Shown here: positions 2,930 through 52,090 of the stretch, one piece after another
How positions within the stretch are numbered: the stretch's first letter is position 1
Layout: every line of letters begins with the position of its first letter
Assembly: GCA_043814055.1 (NCBI GenBank)
Contig: JBDRKL010000010.1
Coordinates: 32,001-96,000 of the forward strand
DNA from: an archaeon
GTDB lineage: Archaea > Undinarchaeota > Undinarchaeia > Undinarchaeales > JBDRKL01
Direction of reading: 5' to 3'
Length of the DNA stretch: 64,000 nucleotides
The notes under the pieces: generated by a model
Database searches by the model: none
Seen by the model: the letters and a program-made list of their open reading frames with translations, nothing else
Told to the model about the DNA's origin: nothing
Made by a program: the position numbers and the translations under genes

Positions 2930-3066
2930 GACGCAAAGCAGAGCTTCGCGTTAATTCCAAAGCTGATGAAATAGGAGAAACTTTGAAATCATACACAAAA
3001 TCCCTAGAAATTGATGAGCTTTGTGTTGATTCCAAAGCTGATGAAATAGGAGAAACTTTGAAATGA
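2926..3066 (+). CDS. 46-aa micro-ORF (MRRKAELRVNSKADEIGETLKSYTKSLEIDELCVDSKADEIGETLK) with internal repeat
   Basis: ATGA overlaps at both ends (2926-2929 and 3063-3066) suggest translational coupling. It is absent from the supplied ORF track. Confidence 0.55.
   Translation: MRRKAELRVNSKADEIGETLKSYTKSLEIDELCVDSKADEIGETLK
2954..3064 (+). repeat. Two exact 36-bp direct repeats separated by 39 bp
   Basis: ATTCCAAAGCTGATGAAATAGGAGAAACTTTGAAAT at 2954-2989 and 3029-3064. Confidence 0.95.
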
Positions 3067-45999: not shown

Positions 46000-46506
46000 A
46001 TGAATCTTGGTTTTATGAAAGGTAAGCTGGATGTTTCGCTTGAAAACGTCAACTTCTCACCCGGCGATACCATAGCAGGGACTGTAAAGCTTGAGCTTAA
46101 AAAGCCGGTCAAGGCAAGAAAGCTTGTTGTTGCATTTATCGGCGAAAAGACCGTGAGCCAGGCGTCTGTCTCCATAGGGATGGGGAGTTCACGCCACAAG
46201 CCCCAGAACAGGAAGATTTGCATACACAAGTTTGAGATGACGCTGGACGGCGAGAAAGACTACACAATGGGCGAATACCCGTTTCAGATTGCCGTGCCGA
46301 GCGACTTGCTCAGCAGGAACCCGCAGGTGGAAGGCGCGCTCGGCTCAGTAGTGAAAGCCGTGCAGGTGCTTGGCGGCGGCTATTCAAGGGTGAATTGGTT
46401 CGTAACCGCATACCTTGACGTGCCCTTTGGCGTTAATGTCAGCAAGACTGTGCAGGTGAACATAAGCGAGGGCGCAGTCCAGGGCGGAAGTGTCATAAAG
46501 GGCTAG
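46000..46506 (+). CDS. Arrestin-N / Spo0M-like fold protein
   Basis: FSPGDTIAGTVKLELKKPVKARKLVVAFIGE..GEYPFQIAVP..WFVTAYLDVP. Confidence 0.65.
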   Translation: MNLGFMKGKLDVSLENVNFSPGDTIAGTVKLELKKPVKARKLVVAFIGEKTVSQASVSIGMGSSRHKPQNRKICIHKFEMTLDGEKDYTMGEYPFQIAVPSDLLSRNPQVEGALGSVVKAVQVLGGGYSRVNWFVTAYLDVPFGVNVSKTVQVNISEGAVQGGSVIKG

Positions 46507-46529
46507 TCTTTATTGTGTTTCGTTAAAGT

Positions 46530-46660
46530 GGGCCCGTGGAGCTCTCCGCCTGGCCGCGGAGGATGGCCAGGCCGCATCACTCAACACACGTGAAACGTGT
46601 GTGCATGAATCACCGCTTTGCGGTGATCCATGTTTGTGATGCTGCGGCCTTACCGGGCTC
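46530..46660. ncRNA. Unidentified highly structured element upstream of tRNA-Ala
   Basis: Outer stem GGGCCCG/CGGGCTC. CTCCGC/GCGGAG hairpin whose loop CTGGCC complements GGCCAG. Long stem AGGCCGCATCAC/GTGATGC(TGC)GGCCT. Hairpins ACACACGT-GAA-ACGTGTGT and ATCACCGC-TTT-GCGGTGAT. Confidence 0.6.
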
Positions 46661-46683
46661 GTTAGCTGGAAGCCAAATAAAGT

Positions 46684-46836
46684 GGGCCCGTAGCTCAGTC
46701 TGGTAGATCGCATCCTTCGCAAGTCAGAACCTAACGGTTCCGACACCTCCCTTGCGGCTTCGCTGCTAAGAGGTAAACGTTCGCAGGAATGTTTCGAAAC
46801 AGGATGAGGCCTCGAGTTCAAATCTCGACGGGTCCA
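46684..46836 (+). tRNA. tRNA-Ala(CGC) with 79-nt intron at 37/38 (intron 46722-46800)
   Basis: Acceptor GGGCCCG/CGGGTCC with G3:U70 and A73; anticodon stem CATCC/GGATG; T-arm TCGAG-TTCAAAT-CTCGA; BHB-type helix TTCG/CGAA with CAA and ACA bulges. Confidence 0.92.
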
Positions 46837-46886
46837 TTCTTTTCCAAATCCAAACTATTTTATAATCTCTTAACTTATCTAAATCT

Positions 46887-48728
46887 ATGAGGAGATGGCT
46901 TGTACTTATCATATTACTTGCATTAATGCCCCTAGCCCAGGCTCAAGAAATCGGCACAGCAGAAATCAGCGTCCCGGCAGTAAGTATAAACGGCACAGGG
47001 GTTATGACTTCTTTGGAAGTTGAGATAATCGAAGGCAAAGGCCGGGTTCTTCTGAGTGCCGAACCCTTGACAGGCCTGCAGACCCAGAACTCTGAGAGAA
47101 TTGCAACCGCAATTGCAGAGGAAAAAACTAATGTTGATTTTTCAAAAGTTGATGTAATTTACATGTTTTTTATTCAGGATGCAAACGCGATTGAAGGTCC
47201 GAGCGCGGGCGCTGCGATGACTGTGGCGACCATTGCCGCTGCTGAGAACAAGGAAGTGCGGAAGGACGCGAGCATCACTGGCACAATTCAGAGCGACGGC
47301 ACAATCGGCGAGGTCGGCGGAGTGATTGAGAAAGCACAAGCTGCGGCAGAAGCCGGGCACAATTACTTCCTGATTCCATACGGCACCGAGCTCCAGCCGT
47401 ACTTTGTTGAAAAAGTTGAGCACCCAGCACCTGGTTGGACAACAACAAGCATTGAGATTGAATACCGCAATATTACAAAGTACGCAGCAGAGGAGTGGGG
47501 CTTGACCATAATCCAAGTGCAGGACATAGATGATGCAGTTGAGATAATGCTTGAGGGCAAGAACTACACAACTGCTAAATTGCCAAAACTTGAAGATGCT
47601 TTAAGCGAATTTTTAACAGTTTCAATTTCTGAAGAGCTTGAGCCAATGAAACAACTCGCTGCGGATTCGCTGGATAAAGCTGCTGTTGATTTGAACGAAG
47701 CGAATGAAGTTTTTGCAGAATATAATGTTAACCCTGACCTGCAGGAAATGCTCGCAATAATACTAGGCAACGCAGAGGATGAACTTGCCCTTGGCAAAAA
47801 AGCCCTTATGAAAGGTCATCTCTACGGCGCGGCTAACCACGGTTTCAGGGCAAGTGTTGACGCAAAATTTGTCCGGGACTCCATTCTCTATAGGGCAAAG
47901 GGCGAAAGCGAGCGAACTAAATTTCTGGGCGAACGAATAAGTGAGGTTGATGGACTGCTCACTTCAACCCAGGACAAATTCTCTGATGCGGAAAAGCTAT
48001 TGAGCGACACAGGCGCGTTTGAATGGGCTCTTGGCGCTGAAGAGCGGCTGGCACAGGCAGAGGAAGAGCTTTCTGAGAAAGCGAACGAGAGCAGCGAGAT
48101 ATTATATTCGCTTGAAATTGCTGAGGCTTGGATTCTAATTGCAGATGATTTCTATGACATTGCACAAGACCAGACGAGCGGCGAGCACAAGGACCTTGGT
48201 GTTTTTGAAAATTTGAGTATTGAGAAAATGCAGAAGCTCAATGCGGAACTTGGGCAATTTCCCAGCGAAGGCGCCTATGGGCCTGAGTGGCGGTACAGCG
48301 TTGCTGTGCGGATGTATGAGAAGGGCTGGTACACTGCGTCATACGTAACTGCAAGTTCTGCGATAAACCGGCTTGAAACCTCAAGAGAATTCAATTTTAG
48401 GTCAAAGGAAGGCATTGTTAATTATGTTGAGCGCGAGATTGGTTCTGTTGAAAAAACTTCAATCTGGGGTTCAATGTACCTTGATTATGCTGAGCTTCTT
48501 ACTTATTACGCAAAGGAAGACCAGAGCTTGGTCCAACTGAACAATGCGCTGATTTACGCGCGGAGCGCGGAAGTTTATAATGAAGCAAGTGTTATCGCAA
48601 GCGAAGCTCCGGATAAGTTTGTTGCGGATAATAATGATTTTGAACTGGTTGTGGTAGTTATCAGTCTGTTTGTAGTTGCATTTGCGCTTAGATTAAGGCG
48701 TTCAAAAAGAAATTTTAAAAGAAATTAG
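46887..48728 (+). CDS. Secreted/membrane-anchored archaeal S16 (Lon-like) serine protease
   Basis: Signal peptide, VPAV, EGPSAG (Ser), ITGTI..GGVIEK (Lys), C-terminal TM. Confidence 0.85.
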   Translation: MRRWLVLIILLALMPLAQAQEIGTAEISVPAVSINGTGVMTSLEVEIIEGKGRVLLSAEPLTGLQTQNSERIATAIAEEKTNVDFSKVDVIYMFFIQDANAIEGPSAGAAMTVATIAAAENKEVRKDASITGTIQSDGTIGEVGGVIEKAQAAAEAGHNYFLIPYGTELQPYFVEKVEHPAPGWTTTSIEIEYRNITKYAAEEWGLTIIQVQDIDDAVEIMLEGKNYTTAKLPKLEDALSEFLTVSISEELEPMKQLAADSLDKAAVDLNEANEVFAEYNVNPDLQEMLAIILGNAEDELALGKKALMKGHLYGAANHGFRASVDAKFVRDSILYRAKGESERTKFLGERISEVDGLLTSTQDKFSDAEKLLSDTGAFEWALGAEERLAQAEEELSEKANESSEILYSLEIAEAWILIADDFYDIAQDQTSGEHKDLGVFENLSIEKMQKLNAELGQFPSEGAYGPEWRYSVAVRMYEKGWYTASYVTASSAINRLETSREFNFRSKEGIVNYVEREIGSVEKTSIWGSMYLDYAELLTYYAKEDQSLVQLNNALIYARSAEVYNEASVIASEAPDKFVADNNDFELVVVVISLFVVAFALRLRRSKRNFKRN

Positions 48729-48729
48729 A

Positions 48730-48756
48730 AAAGGACGGCTCCTTGAGCCGCCCTTT
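48730..48756 (-). terminator. Hairpin terminator between convergent protease gene and metK
   Basis: Minus strand AAAGGGCGGCTC-AAG-GAGCCGTCCTTT then TCT. Confidence 0.65.
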
Positions 48757-48765
48757 GAGTTTTTA

Positions 48766-49926
48766 TTAAATTCCAGCGTCTTTCTTGAGCGCTTCTGCCT
48801 TGTCAGTCTTTTCCCAGGTAAAGTCCGGGTCTTCGCGACCGAAGTGGCCGTAAGATGCAGTCTTCCTGTAGATTGGCCTGAGCAGGTCAAGTGTCTCTAT
48901 GATGCCTGCCGGGTTCAGCTTAAAGTGCTTTCTGACAAGCTCAACGATTTTCTCATCGTCTATCTTGCCCGTGCCCTTGGTGTCTATGTGCACCGAGACA
49001 GGCTCAGCAATGCCGATTGCGTACGCAAGCTGAAGTTCGCACTTATCCGCAAGCCCTGCTGCCACGATGTTCTTTGCAACGTATCTTGCCATGTAAGCTG
49101 CACTGCGATCCACTTTTGTCGGGCACTTTCCTGAGAAAGCTCCGCCGCCGTGTGCGCCCATTCCACCATAAGTGTCCACAATAATCTTGCGGCCAGTCAA
49201 TCCAGAGTCTGCAGGCGGTCCGCCTATAACGAATCTTCCTGTTGGGTTCACGTGAATGACTGTGTCATCGTTAATATAGTCGCCGCAAACCGGCTTGATG
49301 ACTTTTTCCGTGATTGTCTCGCGGATTTCGTCAAGCTCAACTGTGTCAGCGTGCTGGGTTGAAATAACAACAGTTGTAACGTGCGTTGGCTTGCCGTTCT
49401 CGTACTCAACTGAGACCTGGGACTTGCCGTCTGTGCGAATCCAGGGGATTTCCTTGTTCTTCCGCACTTCAGCGAGCTTCATTGTGAGCTTGTGCGCCAA
49501 GCTGATTGGAAGCGGCATAAGCTCAGGAGTTTCATTGCATGCGTAGCCGAACATCATTCCCTGGTCGCCTGCGCCCTGCTCCTTGTGCAGACCCTTGTCT
49601 GCCTCAACGCCCTGTGCTATGTCCGGGCTCTGCTCGTGCAAAGACACGAGAACCGAGCACTGGTCATAGTCAAAGCCAACATCCGGCGAGTCATATCCAG
49701 CTTCAAATATTACCTTGCGCGCGGTCTTTTGCACGTCAACGTAGCCGGTTGTCTTAACCTCGCCTGCTACAAGAACCAAGCCTGTGGTGGCCAAGGTCTC
49801 AACTGCAACGTGCGAGTTCTTGTCCTGCCTAAGCAGTTCGTCTACTATCGCGTCTGAAATCTGGTCGCAGAGCTTGTCCGGGTGACCCTCTGTGACTGAT
49901 TCTGACGTAAATATTGTTTTTGCCAT
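48766..49926 (-). CDS. metK: S-adenosylmethionine synthase, bacterial/eukaryotic type
   Basis: [44 protein letters not shown]. Confidence 0.96.
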
Positions 49927-50002
49927 ATTGTATCACCTTCTTTACGAGGAGAACGACCGGAAGGTATAAATAATTTATGGATTATAATATTCTGATTGGA
50001 AT

Positions 50003-50644
50003 ATGGATGCACAAAAAAGAAACAACATAATGATAGCCTTTGGCGGGGTATTTATGATGCTAGGAGCTGCATTGTTCACCCCGTCGCCGCTCAAGATATT
50101 TGCAGTGGTTTTTTTTCTCTTGGGTACAATTACCATAGTTGCGCGTATACTTACTGAAAATTATGGTGAAATAAGTCCTGACCAAGCATTCATTAAAGAG
50201 CCGTCTGAAAAAACAGCAGGTTACTTTCTTGGCATAGGCATAATAAGCATATTGGGAATCCTCTTGATGATTTCCATGATACTCGGCAACCGCATAGAAC
50301 TCCAAGCGAATGGGACCTTTTCATACCCTTATGCGAGTATAGTAAAACCATTATTTTATACATCATTCCCTCTTTTTGTCATTAGTATTATCGTATTTGC
50401 AATCTCTCAAAGAAGGCGAATAGTTGGGCACGGATTTCTGCTACACCTCCCATTTTTGGGACCGTGGGGTGAGAAAACAGGAAGGTTTCTGTTCAGGGTA
50501 TACGGCCTGATAAGCGTAATAGCCGGGTCTGCTGCAATTGCACTAGCAGCCCTGCAAAAACTCCCAGTTACTAGTTATCCACTCGGGGGCATTATGGTAC
50601 TGTTCGGCTTGGCATTATTTTTGTATGGGGGGTACAAAGAATAA
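50003..50644 (+). CDS. Hypothetical multi-pass membrane protein
   Basis: About 6 hydrophobic segments. Confidence 0.65.
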   Translation: MDAQKRNNIMIAFGGVFMMLGAALFTPSPLKIFAVVFFLLGTITIVARILTENYGEISPDQAFIKEPSEKTAGYFLGIGIISILGILLMISMILGNRIELQANGTFSYPYASIVKPLFYTSFPLFVISIIVFAISQRRRIVGHGFLLHLPFLGPWGEKTGRFLFRVYGLISVIAGSAAIALAALQKLPVTSYPLGGIMVLFGLALFLYGGYKE

Positions 50645-50646
50645 AA

Positions 50647-51183
50647 ATGTTGCTTGAAAACATTCAAAAGCGCAGAAAAGCCATAGGGCTCACCCAGAGC
50701 GAACTCTCACGGCTGAGTGGAGTTTCCCAGAGCACCATAGCGAAAATAGAGAGCAACAAAATCAGCCCGAGTTATCAAATTGCAAAGGCCATCTTTGATG
50801 CGCTGGACGCGCAGGAGCACGAGACATCTGCAAAGGCCGCGGACATAATGACGCGGAAGGTTATCACAATAGACTCAAATGACACTGTTCAAACCGCTGG
50901 AAAAATAATGAGGGAAAAAGGTATATCTCAGCTTCCTGTGTTTGAGAAAGACCATTTAGTTGGGATTATTTCCGAGCGGATTATAGTTGAAAACTTTGAC
51001 AAGCCCAGCTTGAAGCAGAAGCGAATCAGCGAAATAATGAGCGAGGCGCCGCCCACGATTGCGGAGAACGCCCCAATCAAGCTGGTCTCAGAGCTGTTAA
51101 AATATAGTTCACTCATTGCGGTTTACCACAAATCTGAGTTCAAAGGCATAATAACCAAGTCGGATTTGCTTGGAGTGATATAA
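50647..51183 (+). CDS. XRE-HTH + CBS-pair transcriptional regulator
   Basis: GLTQSELSRLSGVSQSTIAKIE; ISQLPV, GIIT CBS motifs. Confidence 0.9.
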   Translation: MLLENIQKRRKAIGLTQSELSRLSGVSQSTIAKIESNKISPSYQIAKAIFDALDAQEHETSAKAADIMTRKVITIDSNDTVQTAGKIMREKGISQLPVFEKDHLVGIISERIIVENFDKPSLKQKRISEIMSEAPPTIAENAPIKLVSELLKYSSLIAVYHKSEFKGIITKSDLLGVI

Positions 51184-51221
51184 GAAATCTTTTTATAAGT
51201 GAGAGATGATTAAGAGACGAT

Positions 51222-51363
51222 AAAGTTTGACCAAAGGCAATCAAATTGCTCAGTAGTGCTGCAGCATAACCAATTTGATGCAGCACCTCAAGACACATGC
51301 GAAGCATGTGTTTGCCTCACGCGCTTTGCGCGTGAAGTTTGATCAAACTTTTCATAAAAGTTT
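51222..51363. ncRNA. Structured 5' leader/element upstream of tRNA-Ile
   Basis: 14-bp IR AAAGTTTGACCAAA/TTTGATCAAACTTT (1 mismatch); pseudoknot ATCAAATTG/CAATTTGAT + GTGCTGC/GCAGCAC; hairpins ACACATGC-GAA-GCATGTGT and TCACGCGC-TTT-GCGCGTGA; TATA TTTTATAA at ~51191. Confidence 0.6.
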
Positions 51364-51440
51364 GGGCCCGTAGCTTAGTCTGGTGGAGCGTTCGACTGAT
51401 AATCGAGAGGTCCTGTGTTCGAATCACAGCGGGCCCACCA
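51364..51440 (+). tRNA. tRNA-Ile(GAT), CCA encoded
   Basis: GGGCCCG/CGGGCCC-A-CCA; anticodon arm TTCGA-CTGATAA-TCGAG; T-arm CTGTG-TTCGAAT-CACAG. Confidence 0.95.
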
Positions 51441-51585
51441 CAACCTTTTTCCGGCTTTCGGCCGCAAAAAGCTTGACCAAAAAGTCTCGCTTCGCTCGTT
51501 ATTAAGGGCTTCAGCGCAGCTGAACGCCCTTGCTTTACCTCCTCAAGCAGGCGGAGTGATCAAAATCTCGCTGTCGCTCGTATTT
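51441..51585. repeat. REP-like palindromic cluster downstream of tRNA-Ile
   Basis: TGACCAAAAAGTCTCGCTTCGCTCG and TGATCAAAATCTCGCTGTCGCTCG near-repeats; hairpin AAGGGC-TTCAGC-GCA-GCTGAA-C-GCCCTT. Confidence 0.6.
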
Positions 51586-51601
51586 AAAGTTCCCACCACT
51601 T

Positions 51602-52090
51602 TTAATAATCCCCTTCACCAAACCACCTGTAATTATCAAAGAAATACTGCTCATTGCTCGGATGATATCGTTTCGTGTTCACAATCAATTTGTCGTCGTA
51701 ATTATACCCCTCAACCCAGGTCGCTTTCACTTCAGGGAAGACCTTGTAAACCACGCCGACCCAGTAGAAGCTCTCCACGCTCGGGTCTGCCGCGCTGTAA
51801 GTGTAATTCAAATGCCCAATACCTTTCTCGTCAATTGTGAAAGAGCGCACGCGGCTCGTGACATTCGCAAAGTCCTCAACCGGATGCGCTGCAAGGTATT
51901 CAACAATCAAGTCCTCATTGGTTTGGGGTCTCTCGACAACTTCAAGAATAACATTGGCTTTTTGCTCGGGTTGAATTTCAATAATCGGGATTATCTCACC
52001 AACAATCGGGGTCTGTGCAACCTGCAGAAGCGAGAACAATAACAGAGCTGTTACAGTCCACATTAAAACATTGATGCCACCTTTTTCCAT
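51602..52090 (-). CDS. Hypothetical N-terminally anchored protein
   Basis: N-terminal TM/signal; 162 aa; TATA upstream. Confidence 0.6.
   Translation of the reverse strand: MEKGGINVLMWTVTALLLFSLLQVAQTPIVGEIIPIIEIQPEQKANVILEVVERPQTNEDLIVEYLAAHPVEDFANVTSRVRSFTIDEKGIGHLNYTYSAADPSVESFYWVGVVYKVFPEVKATWVEGYNYDDKLIVNTKRYHPSNEQYFFDNYRWFGEGDY

Follow-up and report, generated by a model that had tools for sequence, protein, structure and literature searches.

Structured elements upstream of two archaeal tRNA genes are probably copies of a lineage-specific mobile repeat family

The window considered here, meaning the whole 64,000-nt stretch of DNA that was analysed (contig JBDRKL010000010.1, positions 32,001 to 96,000, forward strand), comes from an Undinarchaeota (DPANN) archaeon whose genome, G000 in what follows, amounts to 0.98 Mb on 14 contigs, with 45-48% G+C and an estimated completeness of 82%. 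It contains two structured elements, A (46530-46660) and B (51222-51351), each lying directly 5' of a transfer RNA (tRNA) gene, which an initial annotation took for either an undescribed tRNA-leader RNA or a tRNA-targeting non-autonomous mobile element. We followed both through G000 and a comparison set of 17 genomes of the phylum (G000 included; 'archaeon UBA543' and 'Candidatus Undinarchaeota archaeon' are among them). A sister genus, g3, was the source of comparisons between filled and empty insertion sites; its genomes G006, G010 and G002 form, together with G000, the four main element-bearing genomes, which are 78-82% complete. A and B are probably composite copies of lineage-specific, small, non-autonomous, structure-bearing mobile DNA repeats that prefer the ends of tRNA genes. 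The family to which they belong inserts with target duplication and favours tRNA gene ends.

The locus and its two elements

Two covariance models were used throughout, R1 for the head plus the H2 hairpin and R2 for the core stem, all of them modules that are defined with the family below. On the forward strand, the unit containing A opens with a TATA-like sequence, TCTTTATTG (46508..46516), which from archaeal promoter architecture is the presumed promoter of the tRNA-Ala unit. It is followed by a left (pseudo) copy of the tRNA-Ala leader and 5' end (TAAAGTGGGCCCGT, GG and AGCT; 46524..46543), a direct repeat of 46678-46695, and by the head module (46544..46570; R1 match at 46544-46573). The A head reads CTCCGC-CTGGCC-GCGGAG-gat-GGCCAG, so that stem S1 (CTCCGC/GCGGAG) encloses a loop, CTGGCC, that pairs with GGCCAG either as a pseudoknot or as one of two alternative hairpins. 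The core stem, GCCGCATCAC ... GTGATGCTGCGGC (46571..46648), was delimited by alignment with A-type paralogues and is the reverse complement of the B core. Within its loop sits a nested two-hairpin cassette (46581..46632) made of TCAA, a GAA hairpin and GCATGAA-[TTT hairpin]-TCCATG, where the GAA hairpin is ACACACGT-GAA-ACGTGTGT (46584-46602) and the TTT hairpin is TCACCGC-TTT-GCGGTGA (46610-46626), with a CTCAA motif at 46580-46584. The tail, CTTACCGGGCTC GTTAGCTGGAAGCCAAA (46649..46677), is homologous to other A-type tails, and an outer stem, GGGCCCG/CGGGCTC (46530-46536 with 46654-46660), can be read in the sequence; in the minimum free energy (MFE) fold this closing stem pairs CGGGCTC of the tail with the duplicated GGGCCCG. 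The unit ends with tRNA-Ala(CGC) (46684..46836; Rfam RF00005, 42 bits), the intact copy of the duplicated 5' end, which carries a long intron and was missed by ARAGORN at default settings, being found once introns were allowed.

The unit containing B is likewise on the forward strand. The TATA-like box reported some 25 nt before B is present (CTTTTTATAAG, 51189..51199) and is the presumed promoter of the tRNA-Ile unit. Read by eye, ATAAAGTTTG (51220..51229) is a possible left copy of the tRNA-Ile leader, repeating ATAAAAGTTTG at 51354-51364 over a short length with one indel. The 'B-head' module, ACCAAAGGCAATCAAATTGC (51230..51249), corresponds to the 3' tail of full-length family members in head-first orientation, and leads into the core stem GCTCAGTAG-GTGCTGC-AGC-AT..AT-GCAGCAC (51248..51288; R2 match, E 1.0e-10). 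A hairpin cassette (51287..51335) comes next, consisting of CTCAAG (CTCAA at 51287-51291), the GAA hairpin ACACATGC-GAA-GCATGTGT (51293-51311), TTGCC, and the TTT hairpin TCACGCGC-TTT-GCGCGTGA (51317-51335). The closing palindrome, AAGTTTGATCAAACTT(TT) (51335..51352), pairs with 51222-51235 to form the outer stem AAAGTTTGAcCAAA/TTTGATCAAACTTT. tRNA-Ile(GAT), found by both ARAGORN and Rfam, occupies 51364..51440, and 65 nt downstream of it, on the reverse strand, there is a third copy of the family (51505..51556; R1 63.4 bits, E 4.2e-15). This copy is of the '1a' type (head plus H2 hairpin) and is flanked by a ~25-nt direct repeat, GAYCAAAA..TCTCGCTnnGCTCGT.

Both elements are predicted to fold very stably. 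When MFE values were compared with those of 200 dinucleotide shuffles per element, A (-71.6 kcal/mol, z -5.56) and B (-56.1 kcal/mol, z -6.26) were each equalled by 0 of 200 shuffles. No Rfam family accounts for them: at gathering thresholds the whole window yields two tRNAs only, and a search of region 46400-51700 at E up to 10 returned nothing overlapping A or B.

The hairpins, CTCAA motifs and outer stems listed by the initial annotation all exist, and its view that A and B share one collinear layout is only partly borne out. The core common to A and B runs antiparallel in the two: GCTCAGTAG, flanking the B core, has its counterpart in GCCCGGTAAG of A, and one of the two must be reversed for the 3-nt AGC bulges to lie on the same side. 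In the A-type paralogue at C12:18850-18890, R2 matches the strand opposite to the head. The pseudoknot regions of A and B are non-homologous. That of A is the family head and is backed by covariation; that of B is a head-to-loop pairing (9-nt run) found in 1 of 8 copies with the same head and core, the other seven offering runs of 2-5 nt. Finally, the hairpins of A are a nested insert, as the 51-nt GAA+TTT cassette occurs in A and at C12:102352 and is absent from C12:18908 and C4:81072, that is, it is present in 2 of 4 aligned A-type copies, while cassettes resembling it follow the core in B and at C1:6820.

Two neighbouring genes were also noted. Directly upstream of A, an open reading frame (ORF; window 46000-46506, forward strand) matches Arrestin_N (E 2.9e-8) and, more weakly, Arrestin_C, which is unusual for an archaeon. 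Between A and B, the reverse strand encodes an S-adenosylmethionine synthetase (window 48766-49926) with the three-domain MetK Pfam families S-AdoMet_synt N, M and C; its best metagenome relatives are 56-66% identical, which may reflect an old horizontal transfer.

A modular repeat family restricted to the lineage

Searches with blastn-short placed pieces of A and B on most contigs of G000, and reading these loci resolves a modular family. A full member, read head first, consists of a head, CTCCGC-CTGnnn-GCGGAG-N3-nnnCAG, then either the H2 hairpin (1a type; GnnGC-A-TTCGss..ssCGAA-GCnnC) or the core stem ('1b' type; GCCRCAT..ATGCTGYGGC), and then a tail, TTACCRAGC..ATTGCCTTTGGTC. Short forms keep the head end, the series running from a solo head (C11:12132) through head plus H2 to full length. 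A is a 1b-type member (head, then core stem), and the layout of B is the reverse complement, with the tail first, the core next and hairpins in place of the head. Of 36 matches to the B-head (at most 5 mismatches), 17 were judged by reading to be real copies, and its reverse complement follows the core or the H2 hairpin at C4:82273, C4:112944, C11:12019 and C13:17180. The elements stand out in composition, with 53-81% G+C against the 45-48% of the genome.

The exact head pattern matches 19 times in G000, versus 0 for a reversed control pattern. R1 gave 38 matches in G000, 17 in G010, 12 in G006, 4 in G002, 3 in G001 and 2 weak ones in G009, the remaining 11 genomes of the 17 being free of matches; R2 gave 24 matches in G000, and the other 16 genomes together contributed one marginal match (E 0.0014). 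A strict 1a pattern run over 185,579 species genomes returned 8 loci, of which two belong to 'archaeon UBA543' and one to 'Candidatus Undinarchaeota archaeon'. The five bacterial matches lack both pseudoknot and hairpin and are put down to chance, and viral contigs gave 0 matches to the same pattern.

Perfect hairpins (stem of at least 7 bp, loop of 3-5 nt) are a general feature of the non-coding DNA of G000, where 144 were counted against 21.4 +/- 4.6 in shuffled sequence, a ~6.7x excess, with TTC/GAA and TTT/AAA as the commonest triloops. This bears on the compensatory stem changes that the initial annotation saw between A and B. The differences are real; given a genome-wide excess of such hairpins, the hairpin pairs carry no sign of selection on a tRNA-leader RNA. 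Modules are also nested in one another, as exemplified by the cassette in the core loop of A, by hairpins in the head loop at C4:24812, and by modules in tRNA introns.

As to these introns, 13 of the 40 ARAGORN-predicted tRNA genes of G000 have introns of 38-193 nt, and 17 of 40 have an intron of any length (24-193 nt). Several hold H2-type hairpins together with a CCTTTTT-hairpin-AAAAAGCTTGACCAAAAA module that is also found outside tRNAs; examples of intron-bearing tRNAs are C6:51029-51297, C12:115016-115203, C4:126247-126427 and window 46684-46836. A different, intercistronic repeat, TTTCAAAGCTG-ATGAAATGGAGGAAA-CTTTGAAATG, occurs on the forward strand at window 2955-2990 and 3030-3065 and in 25 copies genome-wide. 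It directly precedes start codons, its hairpin loop holding the Shine-Dalgarno GGAGG and its 3' foot the ATG, and usually has a second hairpin, ATGAGACACAAAGC..GCTTCGTGTTCAT, on its 5' side; it could be a portable translation-initiation cassette.

Structure is conserved in a DNA-like manner

Over 15 copies of the 1a type, 95.8% of the cells are paired, compared with 39-52% when the partners are slid, and double changes are seen in 12 of 22 pairs, in both head helices and including 3 of the 5 pseudoknot pairs. Core helix 1 is 97.8% paired, with double changes at 5 of 7 pairs over 13 copies. The character of these pairs is almost purely Watson-Crick. In 44 copies from six genomes, the 429 scored H2 cells divide into 404 Watson-Crick, 3 G-U, 3 A-C and 19 other, and S1 over 44 copies gives 256 Watson-Crick and one each of G-U, A-C and other. 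Numerous G-U pairs are normally tolerated in a functional RNA, and not in a palindromic DNA element. Structure in this family is conserved in the manner of DNA. In S1 and H2 the G-U and A-C counts are balanced and near zero, and the sole asymmetry concerns one pseudoknot position, taken up below.

Association with tRNA and other stable-RNA genes

Of the 32 non-coding element loci, 14 have a tRNA no more than 200 nt away, a distance within which 9.2% of the non-coding space falls (binomial P = 3e-7), and by our own count 12 of the 24 R2 matches lie within 100 nt of one. Roughly half of the copies are situated away from tRNAs. The association with tRNAs is real and not exclusive. The mobile-element half of the initial annotation was essentially right, with tRNA ends as a preferred target instead of the sole one. 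The orientation of the core relative to the adjacent tRNA was read in 13 cases and is not fixed: nine are co-oriented and four, A among them, anti-oriented, which is hard to reconcile with a function as leader RNA.

The gene for ribonuclease P (RNase P) RNA is located at C12:3873-4205 on the reverse strand of G000 (141 bits). A 1a element and a palindrome module (G000:C12:3743-3874) lie directly downstream of its 3' end, and repeats in this position suggest that stable-RNA genes in general, beyond tRNAs, attract them. The palindrome AAGTTTGATCAAA(CTT), represented in B by window 51223-51235 and 51335-51350, has 18 sites in G000 (at most one mismatch), and at 12 of these a tRNA lies no more than 200 nt away. 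It is often contained in AAACTTTTTATT..AAAAAGTTTGATCAAAAACTCGCTnnnGCTCG directly after the 3' ends of the genes for tRNAs and for RNase P RNA, and a 67-nt tandem array of the module is found at G000:C10:138500-138650. The palindrome might serve as promoter or operator, or be a further module of the repeats.

Insertion with target duplication

If the repeats are insertions, their flanks should tell of it. Anchored scores of flanking repeats were compared with those of 1500 random controls, whose 99th percentile was 10, and in 15 of 26 head copies the bases just 5' of the head recur downstream with a score beyond that percentile. The flank repeat of A scores 12.0. These direct repeats are imperfect and ~9-59 nt long. 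What has been duplicated is varied: tRNA 5' ends (A, C12:18908 and C10:135395), tRNA 3' ends from the T-loop outwards (C9:11369, C10:103901, C9:50928 and others), a Shine-Dalgarno-plus-ATG region (C7:110631, 55 nt) and TATA boxes (C9:45814 and C13:42075). In all tRNA cases read, the tail of the element faces the intact gene and its head a decaying pseudo-copy.

Genus g3 allows filled and empty sites to be compared directly. At G006:C7:57252 an element is inserted in the T-loop of a tRNA, behind GAAC as read on the strand displayed, and has a ~33-nt duplication, where G010 and G002 have a single-copy target. In contig C19 of G010, two elements occupy the T-loops of two adjacent tRNAs with duplications of ~26-29 nt, and G006 and G002 are empty at both. 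A 69-nt (23-codon) in-frame insert after codon 2 at G006:C7:11612 has a duplication of at most 2 nt and is missing from G010 and G002. Presence is thus polymorphic at 4 of 4 comparable orthologous sites, and target duplications overall range from at most 2 nt, through ~26-33 nt at T-loops, to 52-59 nt at the longest. Orthologue searches for L186 and L162 matched one flank only in other genomes.

Some copies are translated. The FtsY gene of G000 (C9:25308-26807, reverse strand) contains an in-frame 1a copy, ..IEASPGANASALPPRAGGE.., in the acidic N-terminal region (A-domain), near residue 180 and ahead of the SRP54 domains at residues 221-498, and the C-terminal tail of L18Ae/LX (G000:C9:27257-27619, reverse strand; domain at residues 3-58) is made of element, ..AASPDANASAHPPGAAGE*.

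The bases at the junctions are shared between copies. The GTGGAGCT junction beside A recurs in its paralogue at C12:18908, in both cases replacing native GTAGCT, and TCCGAAC ends the pseudo-copy at three T-loop sites of g3, where the native T-loops read ATTCGAAC, GTTCGAAC and ATTTGAAC.

Enzymes and a possible mechanism

Eight Pfam families of mobilising enzymes were searched for, six of them across the order and the Y1_Tnp and TnpB domains in G000 only. Cas1, Phage_integrase, RVT_1, DDE_Tnp_1, the IS110 DEDD domain and Resolvase have no match in G000, G006, G010 or G002. Y1_Tnp (PF01797) has none in G000, the sole genome searched for it, where the TnpB TNB domain gives only a sub-threshold 16.5-bit match inside a 638-aa ORF. 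Elsewhere in the order, the only Cas1 belongs to G009, the genome with two weak R1 matches, and the only RVT_1 match to G011, which has several transposases and a reverse transcriptase (RT) and no element.

A model of how the family spreads can nevertheless be sketched. New copies would enter DNA with duplication of the adjoining target, from at most 2 nt to ~59 nt, at hot spots that may be exposed hairpin-loop positions of tRNA genes, the T-loop above all, and small perfect triloop hairpins would nest secondarily into loops. Where the duplication spans the distance from the insertion point to the end of the gene, an intact gene is regenerated beside a decaying pseudo-copy. A would have entered tRNA-Ala in its D-arm region, where duplication of leader and 5' end restored an intact gene, and B would have entered the tRNA-Ile leader. 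Being downstream of TATA-like boxes, both should form transcribed leaders of ~140-160 nt that RNase P would then cut away, and presumably have no function of their own.

With respect to the machinery, one option is an unrecognised trans-acting enzyme that would make widely staggered cuts. The sub-hypothesis that we prefer, tentatively and with the odds still against it, does without a transposase. Copying might begin at stalled hairpin loops, through a switch of template during replication or through ectopic gene conversion, and be guided by short homologies of a generic kind, for example in the T-loop (TTCGAA), at the CCA end, in the D-arm, in TATA boxes or in the Shine-Dalgarno-ATG region. 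Copying guided by homology would explain why junction bases travel with the element; together, variable duplication length, hairpin-loop preference and shared junction bases fit homology-assisted copying somewhat better than a fixed-stagger transposase. More doubtful again is the bolder proposal that self-propagating hairpin/pseudoknot modules re-copy ~25-60 nt of target without a transposase, or else that a 'ruler' integrase unrelated to Cas1 nicks 25-35 bp apart at tRNA 3' ends. Although speculative, transposase-free spread or such an integrase would, if true, give Archaea a mode of DNA mobility that had not been described before.

Three further ideas were tried and set aside. A guide-RNA scheme resembling the omega-RNAs of IscB/TnpB, with the flank copy as guide, conflicts with the variable repeat length (~9-59 nt), with a second copy that abuts the other end, with plain insertions at empty sites and with the failure to find TnpB in G000. 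Mutagenic copying of the kind performed by diversity-generating retroelements is not indicated, because the mismatches in long repeats (e.g. C7:110631) are by eye not adenine-specific and RVT_1 has no match in the four main element-bearing genomes. A terminator function finds no echo in the orientation of 1a elements to the upstream gene, which is mixed (3 co-oriented and 5 not, among 8 scored by eye).

Weighing the interpretation

Several observations weigh against mobile DNA repeats as the explanation. Neither a donor, nor an autonomous partner, nor an enzyme was found with the eight Pfam families in these 78-82% complete genomes; incomplete genomes and so few families mean that a divergent, novel, or host- or virus-supplied transposase could still be at work. 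At one pseudoknot pair, 9 of 15 copies have U-G, on the head-first strand only; different families of the order have heads that are 100% identical for ~25 nt; and several copies have C(UUCG)G loops. All of these features would also suit an RNA specific to one strand, or single-stranded DNA that a protein recognises; the U-G asymmetry itself hints at strand-specific folding of either RNA or single-stranded DNA. Co-orientation of nine of 13 cores with the tRNA is a weak bias and not significant. In principle the empty sites could be precise deletions between repeats, which would be needed in two lineages each and is less parsimonious. The filled/empty comparisons concern sites in genus g3 and not A or B themselves, and a metagenome scan with MetK from between A and B kept 80 loci, all 56-66% identical, with no close relative among them.

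The other half of the initial annotation, in which A and B belong to a functional structured RNA family, as a tRNA 5' leader or co-transcribed small RNA with a role in processing, self-cleavage or regulation, is improbable. It could draw on the very stable folds, on the covariation in head, pseudoknot, H2 hairpin and core, on the position of both elements between a TATA-like box and a tRNA, on the enrichment near tRNAs, and on the strand-specific U-G pair and head sequence kept between families just described. It is hard to square, however, with repeats that are spread genome-wide, about half of them not near tRNAs, that occur in either orientation (down to the antiparallel cores of A and B) with scarcely any G-U in H2, that lie in frame within FtsY, L18Ae and a g3 gene, and whose presence varies at every comparable site. 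The B pseudoknot, confined to one of eight copies, and the empty Rfam result point the same way.

We consider it equally improbable that the repeats are retroposons akin to short interspersed nuclear elements (SINEs), in which a transcript of the 'B orientation', ending 3' in the head hairpin, would serve as template for target-primed reverse transcription at a nick and so give variable duplications and 5'-truncated copies. The range of duplication lengths suits such a process, as do truncation from one end, with short forms always keeping the head, and the many copies in the leaders and trailers that are transcribed with highly expressed genes for stable RNAs. Yet RVT_1 (PF00078) is lacking from the four element-bearing genomes (78-82% complete), the elements have no A-rich or other simple 3' tail, and their stems are devoid of the G-U pairs expected of a selected RNA.

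Less probable still are palindromes of the repetitive extragenic palindromic (REP)/REPIN or IS200/IS605 type, moved as single-stranded hairpins by an HUH (Y1) transposase, an analogy that the initial annotation had drawn. GC-rich hairpins with very stable triloops such as GC-GAA-GC, insertion into hairpin loops and stems restricted to Watson-Crick pairs would all be in keeping with it. HUH elements are not known to duplicate their target on insertion, and here duplications of ~26-33 nt are verified against empty sites; PF01797 has no match in G000 (82% complete, its relatives being outside this search), and the TnpB TNB match is below threshold. That the direct repeats are attachment (att) sites and the elements remnants of integrase-mediated integration into tRNA genes is the least probable of all, for although the duplicated block runs from the T-loop to the tRNA 3' end, reportedly the classic identity block of tRNA-targeting integrases (Williams 2002, in the references of PMC9897764), Phage_integrase (PF00589) has no match in the four genomes, the inserts measure only 50-150 nt, and the duplicated targets are numerous and unrelated to one another, with start codons, TATA boxes and coding sequence among them.

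Mobile DNA repeats with a preference for tRNA gene ends consequently remain our interpretation, and it removes a false lead, in that neither element is a tRNA-leader ribozyme or riboswitch of a new kind. For prokaryotic repeats, the covarying pseudoknot head, the T-loop insertion with ~26-33 nt duplications verified against empty sites, and the in-frame colonisation of essential genes such as FtsY are unusual. There is a practical side as well, since annotation of DPANN metagenome-assembled genomes will be misled by the pseudo-tRNA fragments, the spurious ORFs, and the long 'leaders' and introns of tRNAs to which the repeats give rise. A keyword search of open-access text turned up no description of such repeats in Undinarchaeota or DPANN, and the family appears to be undescribed in Undinarchaeota.

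Comparison with known systems

The family lacks defining features of a miniature inverted-repeat transposable element (MITE), of a REP with its REP-associated tyrosine transposase (RAYT) or an IS200/605 element, and of a retroposon (no RVT_1 match in the four main element-bearing genomes). In the integration of CRISPR spacers and of casposons by Cas1, a short insert comes to be flanked by a duplicated block of ~25-35 bp, and casposons target tRNA 3' ends. The Undinarchaeota repeats resemble these in insertion geometry only, and differ in that G000, G006, G010 and G002 have no Cas1. With REP/REPIN-RAYT and IS200/IS605 palindromes they share extragenic, GC-rich hairpins for which recognition in single-stranded form is plausible; unlike them, they show target duplications, in a genome (G000) with no Y1 transposase.

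Prokaryotic MITEs offer another comparison. Archaeal MITEs are listed for Sulfolobus, Halobacterium and Haloquadratum in a review (PMC10969869), according to which MITEs are non-autonomous, multi-copy and 50-150 nt long, with target direct repeats and predicted transcripts that fold stably, all in common with the present family. Small, non-coding and multi-copy the family certainly is, with 38 R1 and 24 R2 matches in 0.98 Mb. However, MITEs have terminal inverted repeats that match a partner insertion sequence (IS), a fixed short duplication and typically an AT-rich composition, whereas the Undinarchaeota repeats are GC-rich and their duplications vary from copy to copy instead of being short and fixed. 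No consistent terminal inverted repeats appear in aligned copies, where by eye at most a 6-nt CCGAAC/GTTCGG is visible in g3, and no partner IS or transposase was found among the eight families searched.

The palindromic elements of Rickettsia, as portrayed in the same text (PMC10969869), are likewise small palindromic repeats of a reduced genome that sit in frame in protein genes and are translated. They differ from the Undinarchaeota family in being ~150 bp long, bacterial and unrelated in sequence. We know of no report of T-loop targeting or of long target duplications for them.

Mobile GC-rich palindromes of fungal and sponge mitochondria are among the closest systems. They include the GC clusters of yeast, the PstI palindromes of Neurospora that flank tRNA genes, and the 'repetitive hairpin-forming elements' of sponges (PMC4478555, reference list citing Yin et al.; PMC2800124). 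As described in PMC4478555, mitochondrial GC clusters are short hairpin modules richer in G+C than their compact host genome; they are multi-copy, merge and shuffle into composites, have putative target duplications and lie next to tRNAs; and their mobilisation mechanism is unresolved there as it is here. Nesting and polymorphic presence, further marks of repeats of this type, are seen in the Undinarchaeota family as well. On the other hand, the Undinarchaeota repeats inhabit a free archaeal (DPANN) chromosome instead of an organelle, they have a conserved, covarying pseudoknot head, and their duplications of ~26-33 nt at T-loops, and up to ~59 nt, contrast with the AG dinucleotide duplication given for GC clusters in that text (PMC4478555). 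The two have no sequence similarity, and the likeness is one of features only. How hairpin repeats spread is still an open question for mitochondrial GC clusters too, to judge from the same source (PMC4478555), and with none of the six transposase or recombinase families searched across the order found in four genomes, the Undinarchaeota repeats offer a tractable case for the spread of hairpin repeats in reduced genomes. Their closest analogues, functional and not homologous, would seem to be mitochondrial GC clusters, Rickettsia palindromic elements and prokaryotic MITEs.

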